A stretch of DNA of 64,000 bases. It comes from Candidatus Omnitrophota bacterium (lineage in GTDB: Bacteria; Omnitrophota; Gorgyraeia; 2-01-FULL-45-10). The position numbers were made by a program, and so were the translations under genes. Location of the stretch: NCBI GenBank assembly GCA_026387175.1, contig JAPLME010000012.1:5849-69848 (forward strand). Direction: 5' to 3'. Numbering within the stretch: position 1 is the stretch's first letter; every line of letters begins with the position of its first letter. The notes under the pieces were generated by a model, which was not told the origin of the DNA, made no database searches, and saw nothing but the letters and a program-made list of their open reading frames with translations. Of this stretch, positions 27,443-51,150 are shown one piece after another.

Positions 27443-27532
27443 GGGGCCATCCCAAAAAGGGACACCCTGCAATCTCAACCCCCGCCCCTTTAAGTTTATT
27501 TATTACAGGGTGTCCCTTTTTGGGATGGCCCC
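27443..27532. repeat. GGGGCCATCC-family palindromic repeat: perfect 27-bp inverted repeat with a ~36-nt loop
   Basis: Left arm ggggccatcccaaaaagggacaccctg; right arm cagggtgtccctttttgggatggcccc. The same terminal motif recurs at 45016, 45575 and 48724. Confidence 0.7.
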
Positions 27533-41539: not shown

Positions 41540-41616
41540 GGGGACGTAGTTCAGTTGGTTAGAACGTCAGATTGTCGATCTGAAGGTCGCGGGTTCGACC
41601 CCCGTCGTCCCCGCCA
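41540..41616 (+). tRNA. tRNA-Asp (anticodon GTC)
   Basis: GGGGACGTAGTTCAGTTGGTTAGAACGTCAGATTGTCGATCTGAAGGTCGCGGGTTCGACCCCCGTCGTCCCCGCCA. Confidence 0.8.
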
Positions 41617-41623
41617 CTTTAGG

Positions 41624-41659
41624 AAATGCCTTACAAAATAACTGTAGGGCATTTTTATT
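41624..41659 (+). terminator. Rho-independent terminator-like hairpin after tRNA-Asp
   Basis: aaatgcc-(17 nt)-ggcattt followed by TTTATT. Confidence 0.4.
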
Positions 41660-41660
41660 G

Positions 41661-41788
41661 GTGGCGGGGATATAGGGGGTCGAAGCTCGCGAGCGCCGAC
41701 GAATAGGAGGAAAAGCGCTATGCGCGACAGCGAGCGAGCTGGCTACGCAGGCGAGCTCTGCGAGCCGAAGTAGCCGACCCCCGTCGTC
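41661..41788 (+). repeat. tRNA-linked conserved ~100-nt element, copy 2; bracketed by an inverted and a direct copy of the tRNA-Asp 3' end
   Basis: Left: TGGCGGGGAtataGGGGGTCGAA (reverse complement of TTCGACCCCCGTCGTCCCCGCCA with a 4-nt change). Core nearly identical to copy 1. Right: CGACCCCCGTCGTC (41775-41788). Confidence 0.6.
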
Positions 41789-41942
41789 AAATCCTCTTGA
41801 CTAATCCTAATTCCAAGAGTAGCATATTCTTTAACTGGTTATTAGGCAGTTACTTAAGGAGCCGAAGCGACGTTCGACTCCCCTCGTCCCCGCTGGAGTT
41901 TGACATATGTGCAGAACCCATAATTAGATATCCGAGTTTCTC

Positions 41943-41970
41943 AGCTGCCCCTAAAGGCAGCTTTTTTATT
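41943..41970 (+). terminator. Rho-independent terminator-like hairpin
   Basis: agctgcc-cctaaa-ggcagct followed by TTTTTTATTT. Confidence 0.45.
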
Positions 41971-42049
41971 TCATGGAATAGACGGCACAAAAACGGCACA
42001 GTCTTAAGGGAGGGGTTAAGCCTATCCCCTAGTATCTTTAAAGGATAAA

Positions 42050-42670
42050 ATGAAAACAAGAGATTGGTTAGAAAAAAATAAAATCTTTTTTGAAACCGTT
42101 GCTGCCATAGCCCTCTCGCTCATGGCTTTGTTAGTTTCCTGCACGCAATCCGAAATAGCCAGAAATCAATTAGTCCTTTCTGGAAATCCTATAATTTTAA
42201 TCGAGCCTTCAGACACTGTGAAAGGATCCATCGGTGAATTCAAAATATCCGTTAAAAATATCAGTATGGCAGAACTATACGATATTCGTATTTATGAGGA
42301 TTACTTTGTCACTATGGCACAAGAAAATGGTTCAATTAACTTAGTAAGTGTAGGGGCGTTTATAACTAAACCAAATTTGGTTATCCCACAATTAAAACCG
42401 AATAATAGGGAAGATATTACGATTAATTGTAAATTAATAATTAAAAATATGAAGGAGCTTTACCGCGAACACAAAGGGGTAGAAATGCGAATTGCCCGGA
42501 TAAGAATTAAATATTGCAGAAAACTAGATGGGAAAGAATTTATGCAAACCAAAGCATATATTATTGCGGGACAGGGTGATTTTCTTATTGATTACGATGA
42601 GCGTGGCATAAGAACTCCTATGACTCCCAGTTTTGAGGATATCAAAAATATACTCGGGGCTGAAAATTAG
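42050..42670 (+). CDS. Hypothetical protein: N-terminal single TM anchor plus a ~170-aa soluble domain (AT-rich island gene 1)
   Basis: 206-aa ORF with TM segment IFFETVAAIALSLMALLVS; no recognisable catalytic motif; AT-rich codon usage unlike the flanking core genes. Confidence 0.5.
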   Translation: MKTRDWLEKNKIFFETVAAIALSLMALLVSCTQSEIARNQLVLSGNPIILIEPSDTVKGSIGEFKISVKNISMAELYDIRIYEDYFVTMAQENGSINLVSVGAFITKPNLVIPQLKPNNREDITINCKLIIKNMKELYREHKGVEMRIARIRIKYCRKLDGKEFMQTKAYIIAGQGDFLIDYDERGIRTPMTPSFEDIKNILGAEN

Positions 42671-42748
42671 TGCTATCATTAGAAAAGATAGCACAGTATC
42701 TATTAATGAGTCTTATTACTAAGTCGCATAAGAAAGATAGGAGGAACG

Positions 42749-43843
42749 ATGGCAAAGCTCAATGAGGATATAGAGCAATTAAAGGAAGACCTCGAAGCAG
42801 TTACTGCCGTGGATGATGAAACTTCAAACGAAAATGTTCCCATAAAATATGCAATTAGTTCTTATGGGGCAGATTATCCAGTTGATGGATTGGTTAAAAG
42901 ATTGCAGGCCAAAGATGTTATAATTCCCGAATTTCAAAGAGAATATGTATGGACACTTAGACAAGCATCTAGGTTTATAGAATCCCTTCTTTTGGGTCTT
43001 CCCGTTCCCGGCGTTTTTCTTTCAAAAGAACAAGAAACGGGCAAACTCTTAGTCATCGATGGTCAGCAGAGATTAAAAACATTGCAGTTCTTTTTTGAAG
43101 GCGTTTTTCGTGGAAAAGAATTTCGACTTACTGAAGTACAAGATGAATACAAAGGACGATTGTATAAAGAACTCGAAGACATAGATAAGCGACAATTACA
43201 AAACTCTGTTATTCATGCCACGGTATTAAAACAAGACACCCCAAAGGATGACCAGAGCAGTGTATATCACGTTTTCGAACGATTAAATACGGGCGGGTCT
43301 ATTCTTTACCCACAGGAAATAAGAGCTTGTATATATCATGGGCCCTTTAACAACGTTTTATCCGAAATCAATAACAATACGCACTGGCGAAACATTTTTG
43401 GAAAGATAAATAAACGACTAAAAGACGAAGAATTGCTATTGAGATTCTTCGCTTTATATTATGACAAGGCTACGTATACAACGCCTTTCAAATCTTTTCT
43501 TAACACTTTTATGGAAAGTAACAGAAAAATGGAAAGGTATTCTAAGGCTAATCTTGAAAAACTATTTTCTCCGGCAATGGAAGTGGTATATAAATGTATT
43601 GGCGAGAAAGCATTTAGATTAGATAAAGCTATTAATGCCGCTGTTTTTGAATCAGTAATGGTTGGTCTAGCGACTAGACTAGAGAAAGGAGCTATTAATA
43701 ACGCAACGCAAGTTAAATCAGAATACGAAAAATTAATAAAAATTCCAGATTATTTGGCAGCATGCAAAACAGGAACTTCTGATAAGGGAAAAGTCGAAAA
43801 AAGGCTATCTTTAGCCATTGACGCGTTTAGTCGGATTTCATAA
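42749..43843 (+). CDS. DUF262 (ParB-like / GmrSD N-terminal domain) protein, stand-alone
   Basis: IPEFQREYVWT...RFIESLLLGLPVPGVFL...LLVIDGQQRLKTL and FERLNTGG match DUF262 signature motifs. Good RBS AGGAGG 4 nt upstream. Confidence 0.8.
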   Translation: MAKLNEDIEQLKEDLEAVTAVDDETSNENVPIKYAISSYGADYPVDGLVKRLQAKDVIIPEFQREYVWTLRQASRFIESLLLGLPVPGVFLSKEQETGKLLVIDGQQRLKTLQFFFEGVFRGKEFRLTEVQDEYKGRLYKELEDIDKRQLQNSVIHATVLKQDTPKDDQSSVYHVFERLNTGGSILYPQEIRACIYHGPFNNVLSEINNNTHWRNIFGKINKRLKDEELLLRFFALYYDKATYTTPFKSFLNTFMESNRKMERYSKANLEKLFSPAMEVVYKCIGEKAFRLDKAINAAVFESVMVGLATRLEKGAINNATQVKSEYEKLIKIPDYLAACKTGTSDKGKVEKRLSLAIDAFSRIS

Positions 43844-44301
43844 TGCTTAGTCATGTTACTTCGGAAATAGACAAGATAGACGCTCTTTTTAAGTTTGAAA
43901 ACGACATCATTAATGATGAAGTAAGAGCTTATTGGGCCGAATATCTTTGTGTGCGAGTTGCTGGATTAATAGAGGCCGTTCTAAGAATAATACTATTTTA
44001 TTATGCTAAGAATAAATCGCATGAGAACGTTGCGCGTTACGTATCCAAGAAGGTAGAGGGTGTTACAAATCTTAATTCAGAGAAAATTGAAAACTTGTTA
44101 GGAGATTTTAGCGAGGTTTGGCAAGAGCGCTACGTTCAAAATATTACGGATTCTCAAAAAGCAGCAATCGGCAATATTTACATAAATAGAAATAGAGTTG
44201 GTCACGGACGCAATTCCGAATTATCTTATTATAGAGTAAAAGAATATTATAAGGAAATAAAAGGTGCGTTATTAGCTATTTTGAAAATCGTTGAAGCATA
44301 A
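43843..44301 (+). CDS. HEPN-domain protein (Rx4H motif, RiboL-PSP/Swt1-like flavour)
   Basis: 152-aa all-helical ORF with NRNRVGHG (R-x4-H) near the C-terminal third. The start ATG overlaps the DUF262 stop by 1 nt (ATAATG). Confidence 0.55.
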   Translation: MLSHVTSEIDKIDALFKFENDIINDEVRAYWAEYLCVRVAGLIEAVLRIILFYYAKNKSHENVARYVSKKVEGVTNLNSEKIENLLGDFSEVWQERYVQNITDSQKAAIGNIYINRNRVGHGRNSELSYYRVKEYYKEIKGALLAILKIVEA

Positions 44302-44320
44302 AAACTTTTACTTATCCAGA

Positions 44321-44400
44321 AAAATAGGAAAATAGGGGGGGCCGGTCCAGAAAGTACCACTCTATAAGCTAATGGGCTGGCACCAAAAGAGCCGTCCCCG
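44321..44400. repeat. Divergent copy of the GGGGCCATCC-family repeat with an aaaataggaaaatagggg leader
   Basis: aaaataggaaaataggggggGCCGGTCCAGAAAG...GGGCTGGCACCAAAAG. The 18-mer leader recurs at 45488-45505. Confidence 0.4.
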
Positions 44401-44467
44401 TAAATACGTATGAGATCCGATCCTCATAATATTTTTTACAAGTATCAGATTTTCAAGGAGGTTTGTT

Positions 44468-45013
44468 ATGTCGCTTTTAGGAGAAGAGTTAGTAGAAGAA
44501 TGGTTAAATAGAAAAGGCTATTTCACAATCCGCGGTGCAAAAATCGGAAACGGAGAAATAGACTTGCTTGCTGTTAAATATACAAGCAAAGGAATTGACT
44601 GTTGGCATTATGAGGTTCAGGCCTCCCTTCGACCAGTAAGTTATATTTGTTCAGCGCCTCAAGAGCTTCGTAAATTAGGTAAGTCCGCTCACAATGCTAA
44701 GAAACGTCCTATGTCTGAAATCGAGACTGCGGCGAAAGAATGGATTTATAAAAAGTATTTAGATCCAAAGAAAGAAAATATTAGAAGGAGTCTTTGGCCA
44801 ATGAAATGGAGCTTTGGTCTTATTGTGGGGAATGTTAAACACTCAGAAGAATTGGAAATTATTGCTAAAAATAATATCACCATTGTTCGAATTGCGGATA
44901 TTATTAAAAACCTTTCGCCAAAATCTCAAACTAATAGCAAGGATTTTAGAGTTGGAGCAGCAAGTGGTGCTGATTTAATTGATTTGGTTTTTGCTCACTC
45001 CCAACTTGCATAA
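44468..45013 (+). CDS. Hypothetical protein with possible PD-(D/E)xK nuclease-like N-terminal motif
   Basis: EELVEEWLNRKGYFTIRGAKIGNGEIDLLAVKY...WHYEVQAS resembles an E...D...E-x-K/Q restriction-endonuclease-fold core. Weak; strong RBS AAGGAGG. Confidence 0.4.
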   Translation: MSLLGEELVEEWLNRKGYFTIRGAKIGNGEIDLLAVKYTSKGIDCWHYEVQASLRPVSYICSAPQELRKLGKSAHNAKKRPMSEIETAAKEWIYKKYLDPKKENIRRSLWPMKWSFGLIVGNVKHSEELEIIAKNNITIVRIADIIKNLSPKSQTNSKDFRVGAASGADLIDLVFAHSQLA

Positions 45014-45015
45014 GC

Positions 45016-45088
45016 GGGGCCATCCCACAAAGTGCCACCCTGCATGACAAGAGAAGATCCTAGGCTGTCCCCAAAACAGGATGGCACC
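45016..45088. repeat. GGGGCCATCC-family palindromic repeat (MITE/REP-like), copy B
   Basis: ggggccatcccacaaagtgccaccctgcatgacaagagaagatcctaggctgtccccaaaacaggatggcacc. Terminal 10-nt arms are inverted complements. Confidence 0.6.
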
Positions 45089-45487: not shown

Positions 45488-45648
45488 AAAATAGGAAAAT
45501 AGGGGACAGCGCCCTATTTCCGAAAGTAATGAGGCCATCTCATAAGGGGACACCCTGCATAATAAGCAAGAACCGGGGCCATCCCACAAAGGGACGCCCT
45601 GCATGATAAGAGAAGCTTCTAGGCTGTCCCCAAATAGGATGGCCCCAA
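45488..45648. repeat. GGGGCCATCC-family repeat, copy C (leader 18-mer, a partial unit and a full unit in tandem)
   Basis: aaaataggaaaataggggacagcgccctattt... gaggccatctcataaggggacaccctgcat... ggggccatcccacaaagggacgccctgcatgataagagaagcttctaggctgtccccaaataggatggcccc (full unit 45575-45646). Confidence 0.6.
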
Positions 45649-45685
45649 AACACCAGAATACAAATCATATGAAAGAAGTGGCGCA

Positions 45686-48600
45686 ATGAAGAATTTGCTT
45701 TCCATGATCATAATTATTTCAGTAATCTCTCTTATCAATCGACCAACCATGGCGGACTCGTGGAACTTTGCCGTATTTGGCGATGACCGTAGTGACAATA
45801 CGACTGGCTCCGCAGTAAATACAACCGCTGTTACTGCTATCGCAACTGATATTACAAACAACAGGAATGCATCCTTTGCTATAGTCCTCGGCGATCTTGT
45901 ACATGGAAAAGAAAATGATACTCCCATTGCCACCCAGTTCAATACCTTCAAAACTGCTGCGACAAGCGGCGGATTTAAGGTAGCAGGCGAAGCCGGCGCT
46001 GGGGTTCCATATTATCCCGTCCGTGGTAATCACGACAACGATGTTGTCGATCCTTTAGGCGTAGCATGGAAGGCGGCATTCCCCACATTGCCTCAAAATG
46101 GACCTACCACAAATACATCCGGAGGCGGCAATAGCGAAGTGGGGATGACGTATAGTTTCACTAATGGCAATTCCCTGTTTTTAAGTTTAGATGAATATGT
46201 GAACACAGACACTTATCCAAATCAAGTCAATCAGACTTGGGTGAATACTCAATTAAGCAGCTCTACTGCCGCTCACGTGTTTGCTTATGGGCATTTGCCT
46301 GCATATTATACGGTTGCCGGGGAATCCCTGTCTATTTATGCGGCTGCAAGAGATGCTTTTCTGACCAGTCTTTATGATAAAAACGGCCAAATCTATTTCG
46401 CAGGGCACCAACATTTTAGTGCTATCGCAAGTGCGAATATAGACGGGAACGCATCAAAGGTGTTCTATCCGATCATTGATGGCGCAGGTGGCGCTCCAGG
46501 AACTCTATGGGACGGCACATACACAGATCCTAATGTAACAGGTCTCTACTACAATAGCACTAGCAGCACTCCTTACTATTACACATATTCAATAGTTACC
46601 GTTGATGACGACCTTGTATGGTTAAGGTTGTATGGGACGACAAGCGTGACGACGCCGACTTGGCTGAACCTATATGCGCTTGTTATCAGTGGAACTCTTA
46701 CAACTGATACTAATACTCTGATAAGCGACGTTGCGAATTATTCAACGATTGATTTTAAGCAAGCTTCTAACGGTACCTATTCGAAAGTAATCATCGGCAC
46801 AGGCAACATAGTAAAAAGTGGCGCTGCTGAACTGACCCTGAGCGGCGCCAATACCTACACAGGAGCCACGACAGTCAACGCCGGAACGCTCAAAGCCGGA
46901 GTGGCAACTCACGCCTTTGGTGTGGGCTCAGCCGTGACGGTTGCGACCGGAGGGACACTGGATTTGAACGGCTATTCCCAGACTATCGGTTCACTCGCAG
47001 GTGGCGGCACAGTCATTAACGGTGATACAATCGATACGATCTTGACGACAGGCGATACTGCCTCGACCACATTTTTCGGGATTATCCAGGACGGTACTCA
47101 CAAATTGGGATTCACCAAGGCTGGAACTGGGACACTTACTCTTACCGGCGCCAACGCCTACACCGGTACTACAACGATCAGCGCTGGTACGCTGCAAATA
47201 GGAAACGCCAGTGCTCTCGGTACAGGAGCCGTTACGAACAATGCTACGTTGGATGTCGGCACGACCAATCTTGCAGTTACCGGCGCCTATAAACAAAACG
47301 CAGGTTCAACTTTAAAACTTACCGCAAATTCTTCCTCCAGTTTTGGCAAGATCACGTCCGGCGTTGCTGCGACGGTAGATGCCGGAAGCACTCTTAACGT
47401 TACGGTCGGAGGCTTTATTCCGAATAACACAACTCTTACAATTATAGATACAGGAGGAAAGGGTATAGGGAGCGTCCCAACTACAATTATTTCAAGTAAT
47501 TCTTTCATGACATTCTCCATCGAGAACTCCGGTAACAACCTTGTTCTTACCGTGAACCGTTCCGGAAGTAACAGCTTCAGCGGTGTCGCAGCCAATTCCA
47601 ATGCGGCTACTGTCGGCGCCGCTCTCGATAATATCACCAGTCCGTCCGCAGACATGCAGAGCGTTCTTACGGCGCTCGGCAATTTATCGCCGAGCCAGGT
47701 CGCATCTTCTTTAAATAGCATGACTCCTACCGTTGACGGCGCGGTGACACAATCGGCTCTATCCATGCTTAGCCAGATAACGGGCTCGACCGTAACGCAT
47801 CTTGAAAATGTAAGCACGGGAGGTGTAACCGGTATCTCAACAGGCGACGATTATTTACATGGTTTAGATATTTGGGCGCAGGGCTTAGGTGATTATGCTC
47901 ATCAGGATCCCCGCGGGTTTAGTAACGGTTATAATGCGACGTCGTGGGGCGTTTCGGGCGGCGCGGATATCCCGCTTAATATAGGCGATGATTTGCTGCG
48001 TATGGGTATAGGTTCCGGTTATGGCCAGACCTTTGTCCGCTCAAAGGATAGTTCCGGAAGGAATGATATCGACAGCATTCCGGGAACATTATATTGTGCT
48101 TATGAAAATAATAAATATCCTCTTTATTTGGATATCACTTTCACTTTTATATATAATCTCTATCAAGCCTCTCGCGCAGTTACGGTCGGCACGTTAACCG
48201 AGCGTACCGCCAATGCCGATTATAACGGCCAGCAGTATTCGGGCTATTTTGAGGGCGGCTACAGCTTTTTCTATAAGAATCTCCGCATGACGCCTCTCGT
48301 TTCATTTCAATACATGCATCTGCATACAGGCAGTTACACCGAAACCGGCGCCGACGCGCTTAACTTAAGTGTCAATAGCCAGGATTATGACATGGCCATG
48401 ACGGGTTTCGGCGCTAAAGCAGCGTATCCATTAGAGTTTAAATACGGGACCATCATGCCGGACCTGCATGCCAAGTGGCTCTATGATTGGGCCGGCGATA
48501 ATCAGGCTGCAACTGCGTCTTTTGCCGGTGGCGGAACAGCATTCGGTACAAACGGTTTTAGGGCTGCGCGATCGGGATATGATATGGGCACAAAGATTAG

Positions 48601-48706
48601 CTTTAAGACAAAATACAATATTTCGCTCGATTTGGATTACGATTTTCTTCTCAAGGCTGATTATTATGAGCATTACGGAAGCGTGACTGTAAGATACGGC
48701 TTCTAA
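45686..48706 (+). CDS. Autotransporter-like outer-membrane protein: signal peptide, calcineurin-like metallophosphoesterase domain, beta-helical passenger repeats and a C-terminal beta-barrel
   Basis: Signal peptide MKNLLSMIIIISVISLINRPTMA. MPP motifs FGDDRSD, GDLVHG, GNHDN, GH...GHQH. Repeats of the GANTYTGATTVNAGTL type. C-terminus ...VTVRYGF (aromatic terminal residue). Confidence 0.7.
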   Translation: MKNLLSMIIIISVISLINRPTMADSWNFAVFGDDRSDNTTGSAVNTTAVTAIATDITNNRNASFAIVLGDLVHGKENDTPIATQFNTFKTAATSGGFKVAGEAGAGVPYYPVRGNHDNDVVDPLGVAWKAAFPTLPQNGPTTNTSGGGNSEVGMTYSFTNGNSLFLSLDEYVNTDTYPNQVNQTWVNTQLSSSTAAHVFAYGHLPAYYTVAGESLSIYAAARDAFLTSLYDKNGQIYFAGHQHFSAIASANIDGNASKVFYPIIDGAGGAPGTLWDGTYTDPNVTGLYYNSTSSTPYYYTYSIVTVDDDLVWLRLYGTTSVTTPTWLNLYALVISGTLTTDTNTLISDVANYSTIDFKQASNGTYSKVIIGTGNIVKSGAAELTLSGANTYTGATTVNAGTLKAGVATHAFGVGSAVTVATGGTLDLNGYSQTIGSLAGGGTVINGDTIDTILTTGDTASTTFFGIIQDGTHKLGFTKAGTGTLTLTGANAYTGTTTISAGTLQIGNASALGTGAVTNNATLDVGTTNLAVTGAYKQNAGSTLKLTANSSSSFGKITSGVAATVDAGSTLNVTVGGFIPNNTTLTIIDTGGKGIGSVPTTIISSNSFMTFSIENSGNNLVLTVNRSGSNSFSGVAANSNAATVGAALDNITSPSADMQSVLTALGNLSPSQVASSLNSMTPTVDGAVTQSALSMLSQITGSTVTHLENVSTGGVTGISTGDDYLHGLDIWAQGLGDYAHQDPRGFSNGYNATSWGVSGGADIPLNIGDDLLRMGIGSGYGQTFVRSKDSSGRNDIDSIPGTLYCAYENNKYPLYLDITFTFIYNLYQASRAVTVGTLTERTANADYNGQQYSGYFEGGYSFFYKNLRMTPLVSFQYMHLHTGSYTETGADALNLSVNSQDYDMAMTGFGAKAAYPLEFKYGTIMPDLHAKWLYDWAGDNQAATASFAGGGTAFGTNGFRAARSGYDMGTKISFKTKYNISLDLDYDFLLKADYYEHYGSVTVRYGF

Positions 48707-48723
48707 ACTCGATACGAATAACC

Positions 48724-48760
48724 GGGGCCATCCCACAAAGGGACACCCTGCATGACTAGA
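48724..48760. repeat. GGGGCCATCC-family repeat, copy D (left half only)
   Basis: ggggccatcccacaaagggacaccctgcatgactaga immediately after the autotransporter stop. Confidence 0.5.
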
Positions 48761-48828
48761 GAATATGCTAAATCAATAACGGAGGTGTAAGATGAAGAAG
48801 TTATATCTATCCGATACTGACCGTAAGA

Positions 48829-49920
48829 TTGGCGGCGTTTGTGAAGGTGTTTCTAATGCGTAAATCGGCCATAGCGTTAATATTTTTCTTTATATTATCA
48901 ATTTCTTCTACCATGGTGTGGGCCGAAGAGAAATCAACAGATATGCAGAAGACAACCTGGGGAGATATTTTTGCAGATGTTATTGGTCATTACCCTTTAG
49001 CGGACAGCTTGACCACTGATAATACTATCAAGCAGAAAAATAAGTTAAACACACCAAAAAATTGGGAATTCGGCATAGAAGCAAAGCGTTATATCGCCAG
49101 TAATACCTCGTATGAATTTGGTGATCCGGGCGGGGCCTTTACAAAACCTCTCAGCCGGCTGGAATTTCCGATAAATACGTGGTGGTTAAATTTTGATCTT
49201 CGTCGGACCTGCCCGCGATGGTCGGTTGGGGCAAAGGCGGGTTTTAGCATGAACCGCAATTCAAACGGTTGGATGGAAGATTCGGACTGGGCTACATCCG
49301 GCAGCGATAATATTTTAACCAATTATTCAAGAAGCTATTGTGATATAAGAAAAGCTTTCCTCTTTCGCGGAGATGTAGATGTTAATATCTCGGATTGGCT
49401 GAGGCTGCCTTCATCATTAGAGATACGACCGTTATTCGCATTCCAATTTCAACGATTCAATCCCGTAGCGCATAACGGCGTGCAGTGGAATTATGATGAT
49501 GGAAGCGCGATGTCCCTTGATGGTAACGCTATAAGCTTCAGACAGGACTGGTATACATATATGATCGGGATGAGAGGGGCATACAGTTTAGACCTGAATA
49601 AGCATATAGCGATTAAATTGAAGACAGAGGCCGACTGGGGACCAGCCCTCGGCCATAATGAAGACCATCACATACTGCGCGGGGATAGGTGGACATACGA
49701 AAACACATCAGGCAATGCCCTTTACTTTTTAGCCGGAGTTGATATGACCATTTCAAAAACTATAACGATAGGCGCCGGCATAGATTATCTGTGGATACAA
49801 ACTTTCGGAACCCATCGATGGCGGGATCCTTCTCTTCCTGTCGATCAATCGTGGTCTGACGGCGTCAAGGCCTGGTCTGATCAATTGGGCTTAACAATGC
49901 ATGCATCTTACGCATTTTAG
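48829..49920 (+). CDS. Outer-membrane beta-barrel protein (paralog 1 of a tandem pair)
   Basis: Signal peptide, alternating amphipathic strands, C-terminal ...HASYAF. The true start is probably the downstream Met (MRKS..., ~48856). Confidence 0.55.
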   Translation: MAAFVKVFLMRKSAIALIFFFILSISSTMVWAEEKSTDMQKTTWGDIFADVIGHYPLADSLTTDNTIKQKNKLNTPKNWEFGIEAKRYIASNTSYEFGDPGGAFTKPLSRLEFPINTWWLNFDLRRTCPRWSVGAKAGFSMNRNSNGWMEDSDWATSGSDNILTNYSRSYCDIRKAFLFRGDVDVNISDWLRLPSSLEIRPLFAFQFQRFNPVAHNGVQWNYDDGSAMSLDGNAISFRQDWYTYMIGMRGAYSLDLNKHIAIKLKTEADWGPALGHNEDHHILRGDRWTYENTSGNALYFLAGVDMTISKTITIGAGIDYLWIQTFGTHRWRDPSLPVDQSWSDGVKAWSDQLGLTMHASYAF

Positions 49921-50046
49921 TAAATCTAATGAAAATTTCTGGGCCGATTCTCGCCGTAATCCCAGATCCGTCCCAAAATACCCATAAGGATGATTTGCCA
50001 AAACCCTACCCTTAGAGTATACTTTTACAAAAAGAAAGGATGGGAT

Positions 50047-51150
50047 ATGAATAGATCTATTGTTTTGTTTTTAGCATTAATCCTTATGTTATCTGTTTCA
50101 CCAACAATGTCATGGGCCGGTGAAAAAACATCAGATATAAAAATGACAACATGGCAGGATATCTTTTCAGATGTAGCCGGACATTACCCGCTAAACATTG
50201 GCCAGGCTAATACCTATGCGGAACAGAAAGGTAAATTGAATCAGCCGAAGAATTGGGCATTCGATCTCGGCGTTCAGTATTTCCTTATGAGCCATACTTC
50301 ATATCAATTCGCTAATTCAGGCGCGGTTTTTCAAAATCCACTTAGTAAACTGCAGTTTCCTTTAAATACATGGTGGCTGGAAACTGAACTGCGCCGCACT
50401 TGTCCGAGGTGGTCGGCCGGGATCCGCGCAGGCTTAAGCGTCGCCAAGAATGTAGACGGGCGGTTCAAGGATTCGGACTGGCTGAACCCGGGAAACACCA
50501 GCATGTTAACAACATATTCAGAGAGCGCAATGCGGTCGGAAAACAGTTACCTCTTTCGCGCAGACGCCGATGTGAATATCTCGGACTGGTTGGGGCTTCC
50601 GCCGTCATTCGAAATACGGCCTCTCTTCGCTTTCGAGTTTCAGCGATTAAAGCTCATGGCGCACGATGGTGTGCAATGGGAAGTCGGTTCATACGATCCT
50701 GATGAAGGGAGAAGCCTTGATGGATATGCGAGCGCCCAGGCGCTCGCCGGAAATTCAATACATTTTCGACAGGACTATTATATGTATCAGATCGGGCTAA
50801 GAGGCGTGTATGATGGTTTCAAGATCGGAAAGTACATAACTATTAAAGCGCATGGCGAAGCTGACTGGGGCCCTGTCGTAGGATACAACGAAGATAATCA
50901 CCTCCTGCGTGATCTCTTCGGTTATATTAGGTCATCCGGTAATTCTTTATACTTTTCAACCGGCCTGGACATGGTCTTTGCGAAAACCATTACAGCCGGT
51001 ATTTCAATGGATTACCTGTGTATAAGAACTACCGGCATGCTGCACGATCGAGATCTGGCGCATGGCGGCGTGGAGGCGTGGAATGATGAAAGTGTCAAAG
51101 TCTGGTCCGATCAGACGAGCTTAATAGCGCATGTGTCTTATGCATTTTAG
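50047..51150 (+). CDS. Outer-membrane beta-barrel protein (paralog 2)
   Basis: Start chosen at MNRSIVLFLALILMLSVSPTMSWA (the listed ORF starts at 49990). Co-linear similarity with 48829..49920 (TTWxDIFxDVxGHYPL, LxFPxNTWWL, RRTCPRWS, NISDWL, RPLFAFxFQR); ends HVSYAF. Confidence 0.55.
   Translation: MNRSIVLFLALILMLSVSPTMSWAGEKTSDIKMTTWQDIFSDVAGHYPLNIGQANTYAEQKGKLNQPKNWAFDLGVQYFLMSHTSYQFANSGAVFQNPLSKLQFPLNTWWLETELRRTCPRWSAGIRAGLSVAKNVDGRFKDSDWLNPGNTSMLTTYSESAMRSENSYLFRADADVNISDWLGLPPSFEIRPLFAFEFQRLKLMAHDGVQWEVGSYDPDEGRSLDGYASAQALAGNSIHFRQDYYMYQIGLRGVYDGFKIGKYITIKAHGEADWGPVVGYNEDNHLLRDLFGYIRSSGNSLYFSTGLDMVFAKTITAGISMDYLCIRTTGMLHDRDLAHGGVEAWNDESVKVWSDQTSLIAHVSYAF

Follow-up and report, generated by a model that had tools for sequence, protein, structure and literature searches.

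A probable PD-T4-2-type DUF262–HEPN gene pair in a low-GC islet of an uncultured Omnitrophota bacterium

The window considered here is the whole 64,000-nt stretch of contig JAPLME010000012.1 from an uncultured Omnitrophota bacterium. Within it, two genes on the forward strand, termed A and B, form a pair that spans positions 42749-44301 (1553 bp in total), with A first and a 1-nt overlap between the two. The pair, its motifs and its immediate surroundings comprise the following features:

41540-41616: tRNA-Asp, immediately upstream of the islet
41900-45050, no strand: low-GC islet containing the pair and two unrelated small open reading frames (ORFs), delimited by GC profile
42050-42670 and 44468-45013: the other ORFs of the islet
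42739-42744, + strand: AGGAGG, the Shine-Dalgarno sequence of gene A, spaced 4 nt from its start codon (ATG), read from the sequence
42749-43843, + strand: gene A, encoding a 364-aa ParB-like DUF262 (GmrSD_N) protein whose C-terminal domain is helical and which lacks DUF1524/HNH
42935-42952, + strand: DUF262 motif I (QRxxxW), here QREYVW, Q63-W68, with Q63, R64 and W68 invariant in a 20-sequence alignment
43058-43072, + strand: DUF262 motif II, DGQQR, D104-R108, the predicted NTP-binding centre, with D104, G105, Q107 and R108 invariant in the 20-sequence alignment
43274-43288, + strand: DUF262 motif III (FxxxN), here FERLN, F176-N180, with F176 and N180 invariant in the 20-sequence alignment
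43841-43845, + strand: TAATG junction of A and B, read from the sequence
43843-44301, + strand: gene B, encoding a 152-aa HEPN protein (RiboL-PSP family) that consists of a single domain and is the predicted RNase effector
44188-44205, + strand: predicted catalytic HEPN motif R116-N-R-V-G-H121 (Rx4H), conserved in the B family
44338-44390, + strand: hairpin-forming copy of a REP-like intergenic repeat of the host, just 3ʹ of gene B

At the junction, base 43843 belongs both to the stop codon of A (TAA, 43841-43843) and to the start codon of B (ATG, 43843-43845). The initial annotation of this locus had reported this shared nucleotide and had placed it in the correct interval, but the string it gave for that interval, ATAATG, would begin at 43840; TAATG is the one that fits, and the slip is trivial. 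Inspection of the sequence upstream of gene B revealed no clear Shine-Dalgarno sequence, as expected for termination-reinitiation coupling of the two genes, and the TAATG junction itself fits translational coupling.

Protein A contains GmrSD_N/DUF262 as its sole Pfam domain (residues 54-196, 1.1e-28). No DUF1524/HNH match was found in the Pfam search, in agreement with the earlier statement that the C-terminal nuclease half is missing. The three DUF262 motifs listed above follow the definitions QRxxxW, DGxQR and FxxxN of Li et al. 2025 (PMC12065111), and the second is the DGQQR motif (residues 104-108) to which the initial annotation had drawn attention. The helical C-terminal domain extends over approximately residues 200-364 and corresponds to what Li et al. 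2025 (PMC12065111) term 'ParBDB'. Among the PADLOC defence profiles, A matches NsnA at 7.8e-74 (residues 17-361 on profile positions 28-380 of 385) and PD-T4-2_A (PDLC04027) at 5.1e-66 and 221 bits (residues 49-361 on profile positions 44-362 of 363), and its matches to the BrxU-like HEC-05/06 and SspE profiles are weak and limited to the N-terminus. Structural likeness to BrxU and SspE is similarly confined to the DUF262 part, and a PDB sequence search with the A profile matched nothing beyond the N-terminal DUF262 regions of two entries, one of them BrxU. Judged from its sequence, A comprises two parts of the GmrSD-type enzymes, DUF262 and the helical middle domain, but not their HNH nuclease.

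Protein B matches the Pfam family HEPN_RiboL-PSP (PF18735) with 36.8 bits against a gathering cut-off of 28.4 (residues 6-150 on profile positions 4-189 of 191), followed by weaker matches to HEPN_MAE_28990, DZIP3 and Swt1. A PDB sequence search with the B profile gave no match. The AlphaFold model of B, built from an 81-sequence alignment, consists of seven helices (pLDDT 93.8, pTM 0.89), and its best structural matches are solved HEPN proteins, including the HepT-type toxins 8xdj, 5yep and 7ae2. An all-alpha HEPN fold is confirmed at the level of this model, so that the earlier assignment of B to HEPN holds by profile and by structure comparison alike. The NRNRVGHG stretch singled out in the initial annotation occupies residues 115-122 and includes the Rx4H motif. 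Among 77 family members, all of which match PF18735, H121 is present in every one, and R116, asparagine or histidine at position 117, and G122 are each found in 76.

Homologues of A are numerous, exceeding 7,000 at cluster level, with identities of about 55% common among them. A scan of one genome per species yielded 564 relatives, the best 80 of which were examined; these 80 loci span Planctomycetota, Cyanobacteria, Acidobacteriota, Chloroflexota, Nitrospirota, Bacteroidota, Burkholderiales, Actinomycetota and others, and further include Zixibacteria, Latescibacterota, Patescibacteria and one archaeon. The clade covers more than 15 bacterial phyla and at least one archaeon at roughly 50% identity in A. 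When two further loci are added, a B homologue lies directly downstream of A on the same strand in 76 of 82 loci (phmmer E 6e-11 to 5e-36). Two of the six remaining contigs end 133 and 206 nt past A, leaving 80 loci with readable downstream DNA and four, from three Acidobacteriota and Arthrospira, that truly have no B. The DUF262-HEPN pairing is therefore not unique to this genome, a search that the initial annotation had called for. After refinement of start codons, the A and B genes overlap in 62 of the 76 paired loci, by 4 nt in 50 (ATGA in 47) and by 1 nt in 12; the latter is the type present at the Omnitrophota locus.

The same arrangement is found in three A homologues on long contigs (one annotated as Deltaproteobacteria, one as Aminicenantes and one an ENA metagenome contig), each of which is followed immediately by a PF18735 protein of 135-152 aa; partners of A homologues on long contigs are 38-40% identical to the Omnitrophota B over its full length. 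A word-index search with the single B sequence had returned only five close relatives, as if B were rare or swapped for other genes. This was an artefact of sensitivity, ruled out by the neighbours of the A homologues and by a profile search with the B alignment, which recovered 776 proteins at E <= 1e-5, PF18735 being present in all 120 among the matches listed. Across 77 pairs, the identity matrices of A and B correlate with r = 0.79, a value reached in none of 999 permutations. Mean pairwise identity over these pairs is 52% for A vs 38% for B, a difference in apparent rate that fits, but does not prove, a role of B as a fast-evolving effector.

The pair resides in an islet of about 3 kb with a GC content of 0.34-0.37, whereas both flanks have 0.50-0.55 and carry housekeeping genes; acyltransferase-like and DEAD-box-helicase-like ORFs, judged from their translations alone, lie upstream. 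The 3ʹ end of the adjoining tRNA-Asp recurs as a 22-nt repeat at 41872-41893 (20 of 22 bases), and further copies, partial or inverted, occur at about 41772 and 41660. These repeats resemble integration scars at the tRNA. The islet has no integrase gene. Downstream of B, the fold of the REP-like hairpin is not significant on its own (z -0.7), and this element may mark the 3ʹ end of the operon. An Rfam search of the 38-46 kb region of the window detected only two tRNAs and no other structured RNA. The flanking ORFs (206 aa; 181 aa, weakly YraN/PD-(D/E)xK-like; and 117 aa) were considered as further components and discarded, having no homologues in the 82 related loci. Since this holds for the two other ORFs of the islet, the module is strictly one of two genes.

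One reading of such an arrangement is that A and B are neighbours without a joint function, either unrelated mobile genes brought together by chance or genes with a housekeeping role. No observation in favour of this reading was found, and it is most improbable, given that 76 of the 80 informative loci, across many phyla, retain the pair, that its genes mostly overlap, that the divergences of A and B are correlated, and that the low-GC islet around it adjoins a tRNA gene. The Omnitrophota pair is instead likely to be an anti-phage module of the PD-T4-2 type, made up of two genes and acquired horizontally, and comparison with the known DUF262 and HEPN systems bears on this assignment.

GmrSD, BrxU and SspE share with A an N-terminal DUF262 domain bearing the DGxQR motif. 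These enzymes are single polypeptides of approximately 560-800 aa with a C-terminal DUF1524 HNH DNase. In the Omnitrophota pair, this HNH half is absent, which excludes membership in the group, and the presumed effector is a separate protein, predicted to be an RNase. A closer counterpart of A is found in Menshen, or NsnABC (Millman 2022; Li et al. 2025, PMC12065111), for which a logic of one sensor combined with variable effectors has been proposed. NsnA is composed of ParB-DUF262 and ParBDB, A shares this architecture, and NsnA is its best PADLOC match. However, Menshen also includes the ATPase NsnB and the inPIN-nuclease effector NsnC, and neither gene is present here: A is followed by the single small HEPN protein of 152 aa and then by a 181-aa ORF without a PADLOC or ATPase match. 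Membership in Menshen was rejected for this reason, and an ATPase gene between A and the HEPN gene was found in none of the 76 related loci. Because A scores only slightly better against NsnA than against PD-T4-2_A, A alone does not tell Menshen from PD-T4-2.

PD-T4-2 was described in E. coli ECOR65 as 'DUF262, HEPN', a system of two coding sequences at 338334-339873 of QOYX01000002 (1540 bp), of which the A protein is RCO39066.1 and the B gene is unannotated, and T4 plaquing was restored in ECOR65 lacking it (Vassallo et al. 2022, Nat Microbiol, PMC9519451). According to the HHpred table published with it, the top match of its A protein is DUF262, and those of its B protein are HEPN_RiboL-PSP, HEPN_MAE_28990 and HEPN_Swt1 (PMC9519451). 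The association has an earlier record: a 'Ribo L-PSP-HEPN ... operon with ParB' was tabulated by Anantharaman et al. 2013 (Biol Direct, PMC3710099), as a prediction from comparative genomics only. A 2023 review places PF18735 under PD-T4-2 and lists PD-T4-2, Menshen and Dazbog as DUF262 systems without DUF1524, and Li et al. 2025 (PMC12065111) likewise count PD-T4-2 among DUF262-centred systems. A full-text literature search found no paper on the mechanism of PD-T4-2.

The Omnitrophota locus resembles PD-T4-2 in that its operon consists of two genes, the leading one for a DUF262 protein without DUF1524 and the other for a small HEPN protein of RiboL-PSP type, as well as in length (1553 vs 1540 bp). 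Additionally, the Pfam ranking of the Omnitrophota B is the published HHpred ranking of PD-T4-2B, and both proteins have a histidine at the HEPN catalytic position, H121 in Omnitrophota and H127, which was mutated, in E. coli; H127 of PD-T4-2B presumably corresponds to H121 of B. The locus also agrees with the 2013 association in that a PF18735 protein shares an operon with a gene of the ParB superfamily (DUF262), and departs from it in that the Omnitrophota B is not fused to an endoribonuclease L-PSP domain (PMC3710099). It differs from the E. coli system in its host, an uncultured Omnitrophota bacterium, and in the divergence of B, which is too great for the PADLOC PD-T4-2_B models: neither PDLC04028 nor PDLC04029 matches it even at E <= 1. 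Membership on the B side accordingly rests on transitive and profile evidence. Of the PADLOC families, PD-T4-2_B is the one that the 77 B proteins match most often (21 members for one model and 8 for the other at E <= 0.01; best 2.9e-6), and partners that score 6e-6 and 2.6e-3 against PD-T4-2_B share 38-40% identity with the Omnitrophota B along its whole length. The link to the ECOR65 system runs through PADLOC profiles and published tables. The Omnitrophota pair most likely belongs to a system that has been described before, has been validated by experiment and occurs very widely. The novelty implied by the initial annotation is not borne out, the architecture having been published as PD-T4-2 (PMC9519451) and the operon of ParB with RiboL-PSP-HEPN having been noted in 2013 (PMC3710099).

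More distant relatives are found on mobile elements. A blastn search in 'distant' mode of the Omnitrophota pair against 5,426 complete E. coli genomes gave no match, and tblastn against plasmids and phages returned only more distant DUF262 genes (27-47% identity). DUF262 genes of E. coli plasmids, 33-34% identical to A, are followed by a small homologue of the B family; in hhalign comparisons, the B family aligned with these small plasmid proteins with probabilities of 98.8% (pLR-27_3) and 85% (pRHB15-C18_2), with R-x4-H in register. That the E. coli relatives are plasmid-borne, one of them directly adjoining pemIK, is among the observations compatible with a toxin-antitoxin addiction module. 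Here B would be a HEPN toxin and A an antitoxin acting by binding or by NTP-dependent modification, as MNT acts on HepT, and defence would be at most a side effect. The overlap of the genes with the putative neutraliser first, the HepT-type toxins 8xdj, 5yep and 7ae2 among the best structural matches of B, and the existence of four loci with A and no B, with none having B alone in the A-anchored set, point in the same direction. Nevertheless, A at 364 aa is the large and the slower-evolving partner, and it carries all three DUF262 NTPase motifs, as do the DNA-sensing modules of GmrSD and SspE. Furthermore, the homologous system that has been characterised was picked out as a defence against T4 and confirmed as such by deletion (PMC9519451). 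An addiction module is therefore unlikely as the main function, although a toxin-antitoxin mode and abortive infection are not mutually exclusive. Relative to HEPN-MNT (HepT/MntA), the partner of B is a DUF262 NTPase rather than a minimal nucleotidyltransferase, and B is only 8-14% identical to HepT.

The division of labour within a defence module could also run the other way. A might itself be the effector, a DNase or nickase with a ParB fold that attacks the DNA of phages much as type IV restriction enzymes do. B would then be an accessory subunit that binds RNA or has a regulatory role. Anantharaman et al. 2013 (PMC3710099) regard the ParB-like domains of operons like this one as DNases resembling those of restriction-modification systems, and the nearest solved relatives of A, BrxU and SspE, are type IV enzymes. 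However, BrxU, GmrSD and SspE cut by means of the DUF1524 HNH domain, which A does not have. On the side of B, the Rx4H motif is intact in 76-77 of the 77 members, and PD-T4-2B H127A is one of four point mutants whose residues were reported collectively to be essential for protection (PMC9519451). It is very unlikely, on these grounds, that A is the nuclease and B the accessory.

For the preferred reading, in which A is the sensor and B the effector, a sequence of events may be outlined. A single mRNA would yield both proteins through coupled translation, and the two probably associate in a complex. A would act as a ParB-like DUF262 NTPase, its helical C-terminal domain probably binding DNA, and, as analogy to the DUF262 modules found in GmrSD, BrxU and SspE suggests, would survey DNA. 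In those enzymes, the DUF262 module reads modified or phosphorothioated DNA, and NTP hydrolysis turns on the attached nuclease (2023 review; PMC12065111). On meeting phage DNA, A would release or activate dimeric B. RNA (tRNA, mRNA or rRNA) would then be cut at the composite Rx4H site of the dimer, and phage production would stop. We infer the sensor role of A, DNA as its ligand, the binding of A to B and RNA as the target; abortive infection may be the outcome. A full-text literature search found no report of RNase activity, DNA sensing or A-B binding for this family. Such a logic leading from sensor to effector is a reasonable proposal for the Omnitrophota pair and for PD-T4-2 alike. In a more specific and tentative form, which is possible though somewhat short of an even chance, the DUF262 sensor of the A/B clade would read a feature of phage DNA, for example base hypermodification, and NTP hydrolysis would license the separate HEPN RNase, converting recognition of DNA into destruction of RNA.

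The initial annotation had described the pair as a split architecture. As a DNA-sensing module with a separately encoded RNase, this description is reasonable, but nothing suggests that the pair arose by fission of a GmrSD gene. By comparison with Menshen, the split would better be seen as a shared sensor-type module, in which DUF262 is joined to a helical C-terminal domain, combined with a different effector.

With respect to what the locus adds, earlier publications already cover its architecture, its connection with defence and mutation of the HEPN histidine, and only the host phylum and a B protein that escapes the current defence-finder profile are mildly new. Automatic defence finders may miss the Omnitrophota locus. 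Because B proteins of this common environmental clade are too diverged for the PADLOC PD-T4-2_B models, PD-T4-2 is probably under-counted outside Proteobacteria, which a broader B profile would fix. The tight 4-nt and 1-nt overlaps, together with the conservation of A relative to B, make the clade a clean and abundant data set for work on the mechanism of PD-T4-2, both for paired alignments in co-folding and for the choice of orthologues. If the proposed mechanism is true, a HEPN RNase licensed by DUF262 would be new to any system and the first mechanism for PD-T4-2; even then, the Omnitrophota locus itself would count as another copy of a known system.

The low-GC islet that carries the DUF262–HEPN pair (gene A and gene B, respectively) starts directly after tRNA-Asp and a set of repeats of its 3ʹ end (41540-41900). 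The tRNA gene, its repeats, the remaining ORFs of the islet, and the genes that follow are:

41540-41616, tRNA-Asp
~41660-41684, inverted copy of the tRNA-Asp 3ʹ end
41772-41793, weaker copy of the tRNA-Asp 3ʹ end
41872-41893, direct repeat of the tRNA-Asp 3ʹ end (20/22 bases identical)
42050-42670, + strand, 206-aa ORF, the first gene of the islet
44468-45013, + strand, 181-aa ORF
45686-51150, 1006-aa autotransporter-like ORF, then two paralogous ORFs of ~365-386 aa

From their sequence, the tRNA-Asp repeats look like att-type scars left by integration on more than one occasion; no integrase accompanies the repeats or the islet. The 206-aa ORF has a hydrophobic segment at its N-terminus, found no significant family match across all libraries searched, and has no homologues at the 82 related loci. 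The 181-aa ORF has an N-terminal "GEIDLLAV...YEVQ" pattern and weakly matches UPF0102/YraN (Pfam E 0.007), which together suggest a small PD-(D/E)xK nuclease. This ORF has no match in PADLOC, a library of defense-system profiles, or in PHROG and is not kept beside the pair at other loci; it could be an independent, uncharacterized gene for defense or mobility.

The window also contains a REP-like intergenic repeat with the core GGCCATCCCAcAAAGgGaCaCCCT and a full unit of ~64 nt, of which seven copies were observed against 0.01 expected. Sites lie at:

27445-27530
44340-44363
45018-45041
45533-45600
48726-48749

Most copies are positioned directly 3ʹ of stop codons, and one inverted pair adjoins tRNA-Glu. 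The copy at 45570-45655 forms a long hairpin (z -4.3), whereas folding of the other copies is not significant. As for the two paralogous ORFs at 45686-51150, their translations look like outer-membrane beta-barrel proteins, both terminating in "...SYAF"; the genes of this stretch bear no relation to the pair.

Some close homologues of gene A (P0057, P0072, P0092, P0117, and P0125; 53-56% identity) have gained a PF20296 domain, presumably a sensor, at the N-terminus and reach 513-522 aa, an arrangement that recalls the reported N-terminal polymorphism of NsnA, the DUF262 protein of the Menshen system. At four loci, L016, L019, and L030 (Acidobacteriota) and L039 (Arthrospira platensis), an A gene with ~51-52% identity to that of the window has no HEPN partner downstream, and in L016 it is abutted by a convergent acyltransferase-like gene. 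Such orphans could have lost B, or A could function solo. Where the pair is found elsewhere, an 810-aa TIR-TPR protein directly follows it on an Aminicenantes contig (L002, 5694-8126), and NYN, PIN_12, DUF4145, and Fic genes neighbor it at L001; elsewhere, therefore, the pair resides in typical defense-island surroundings.
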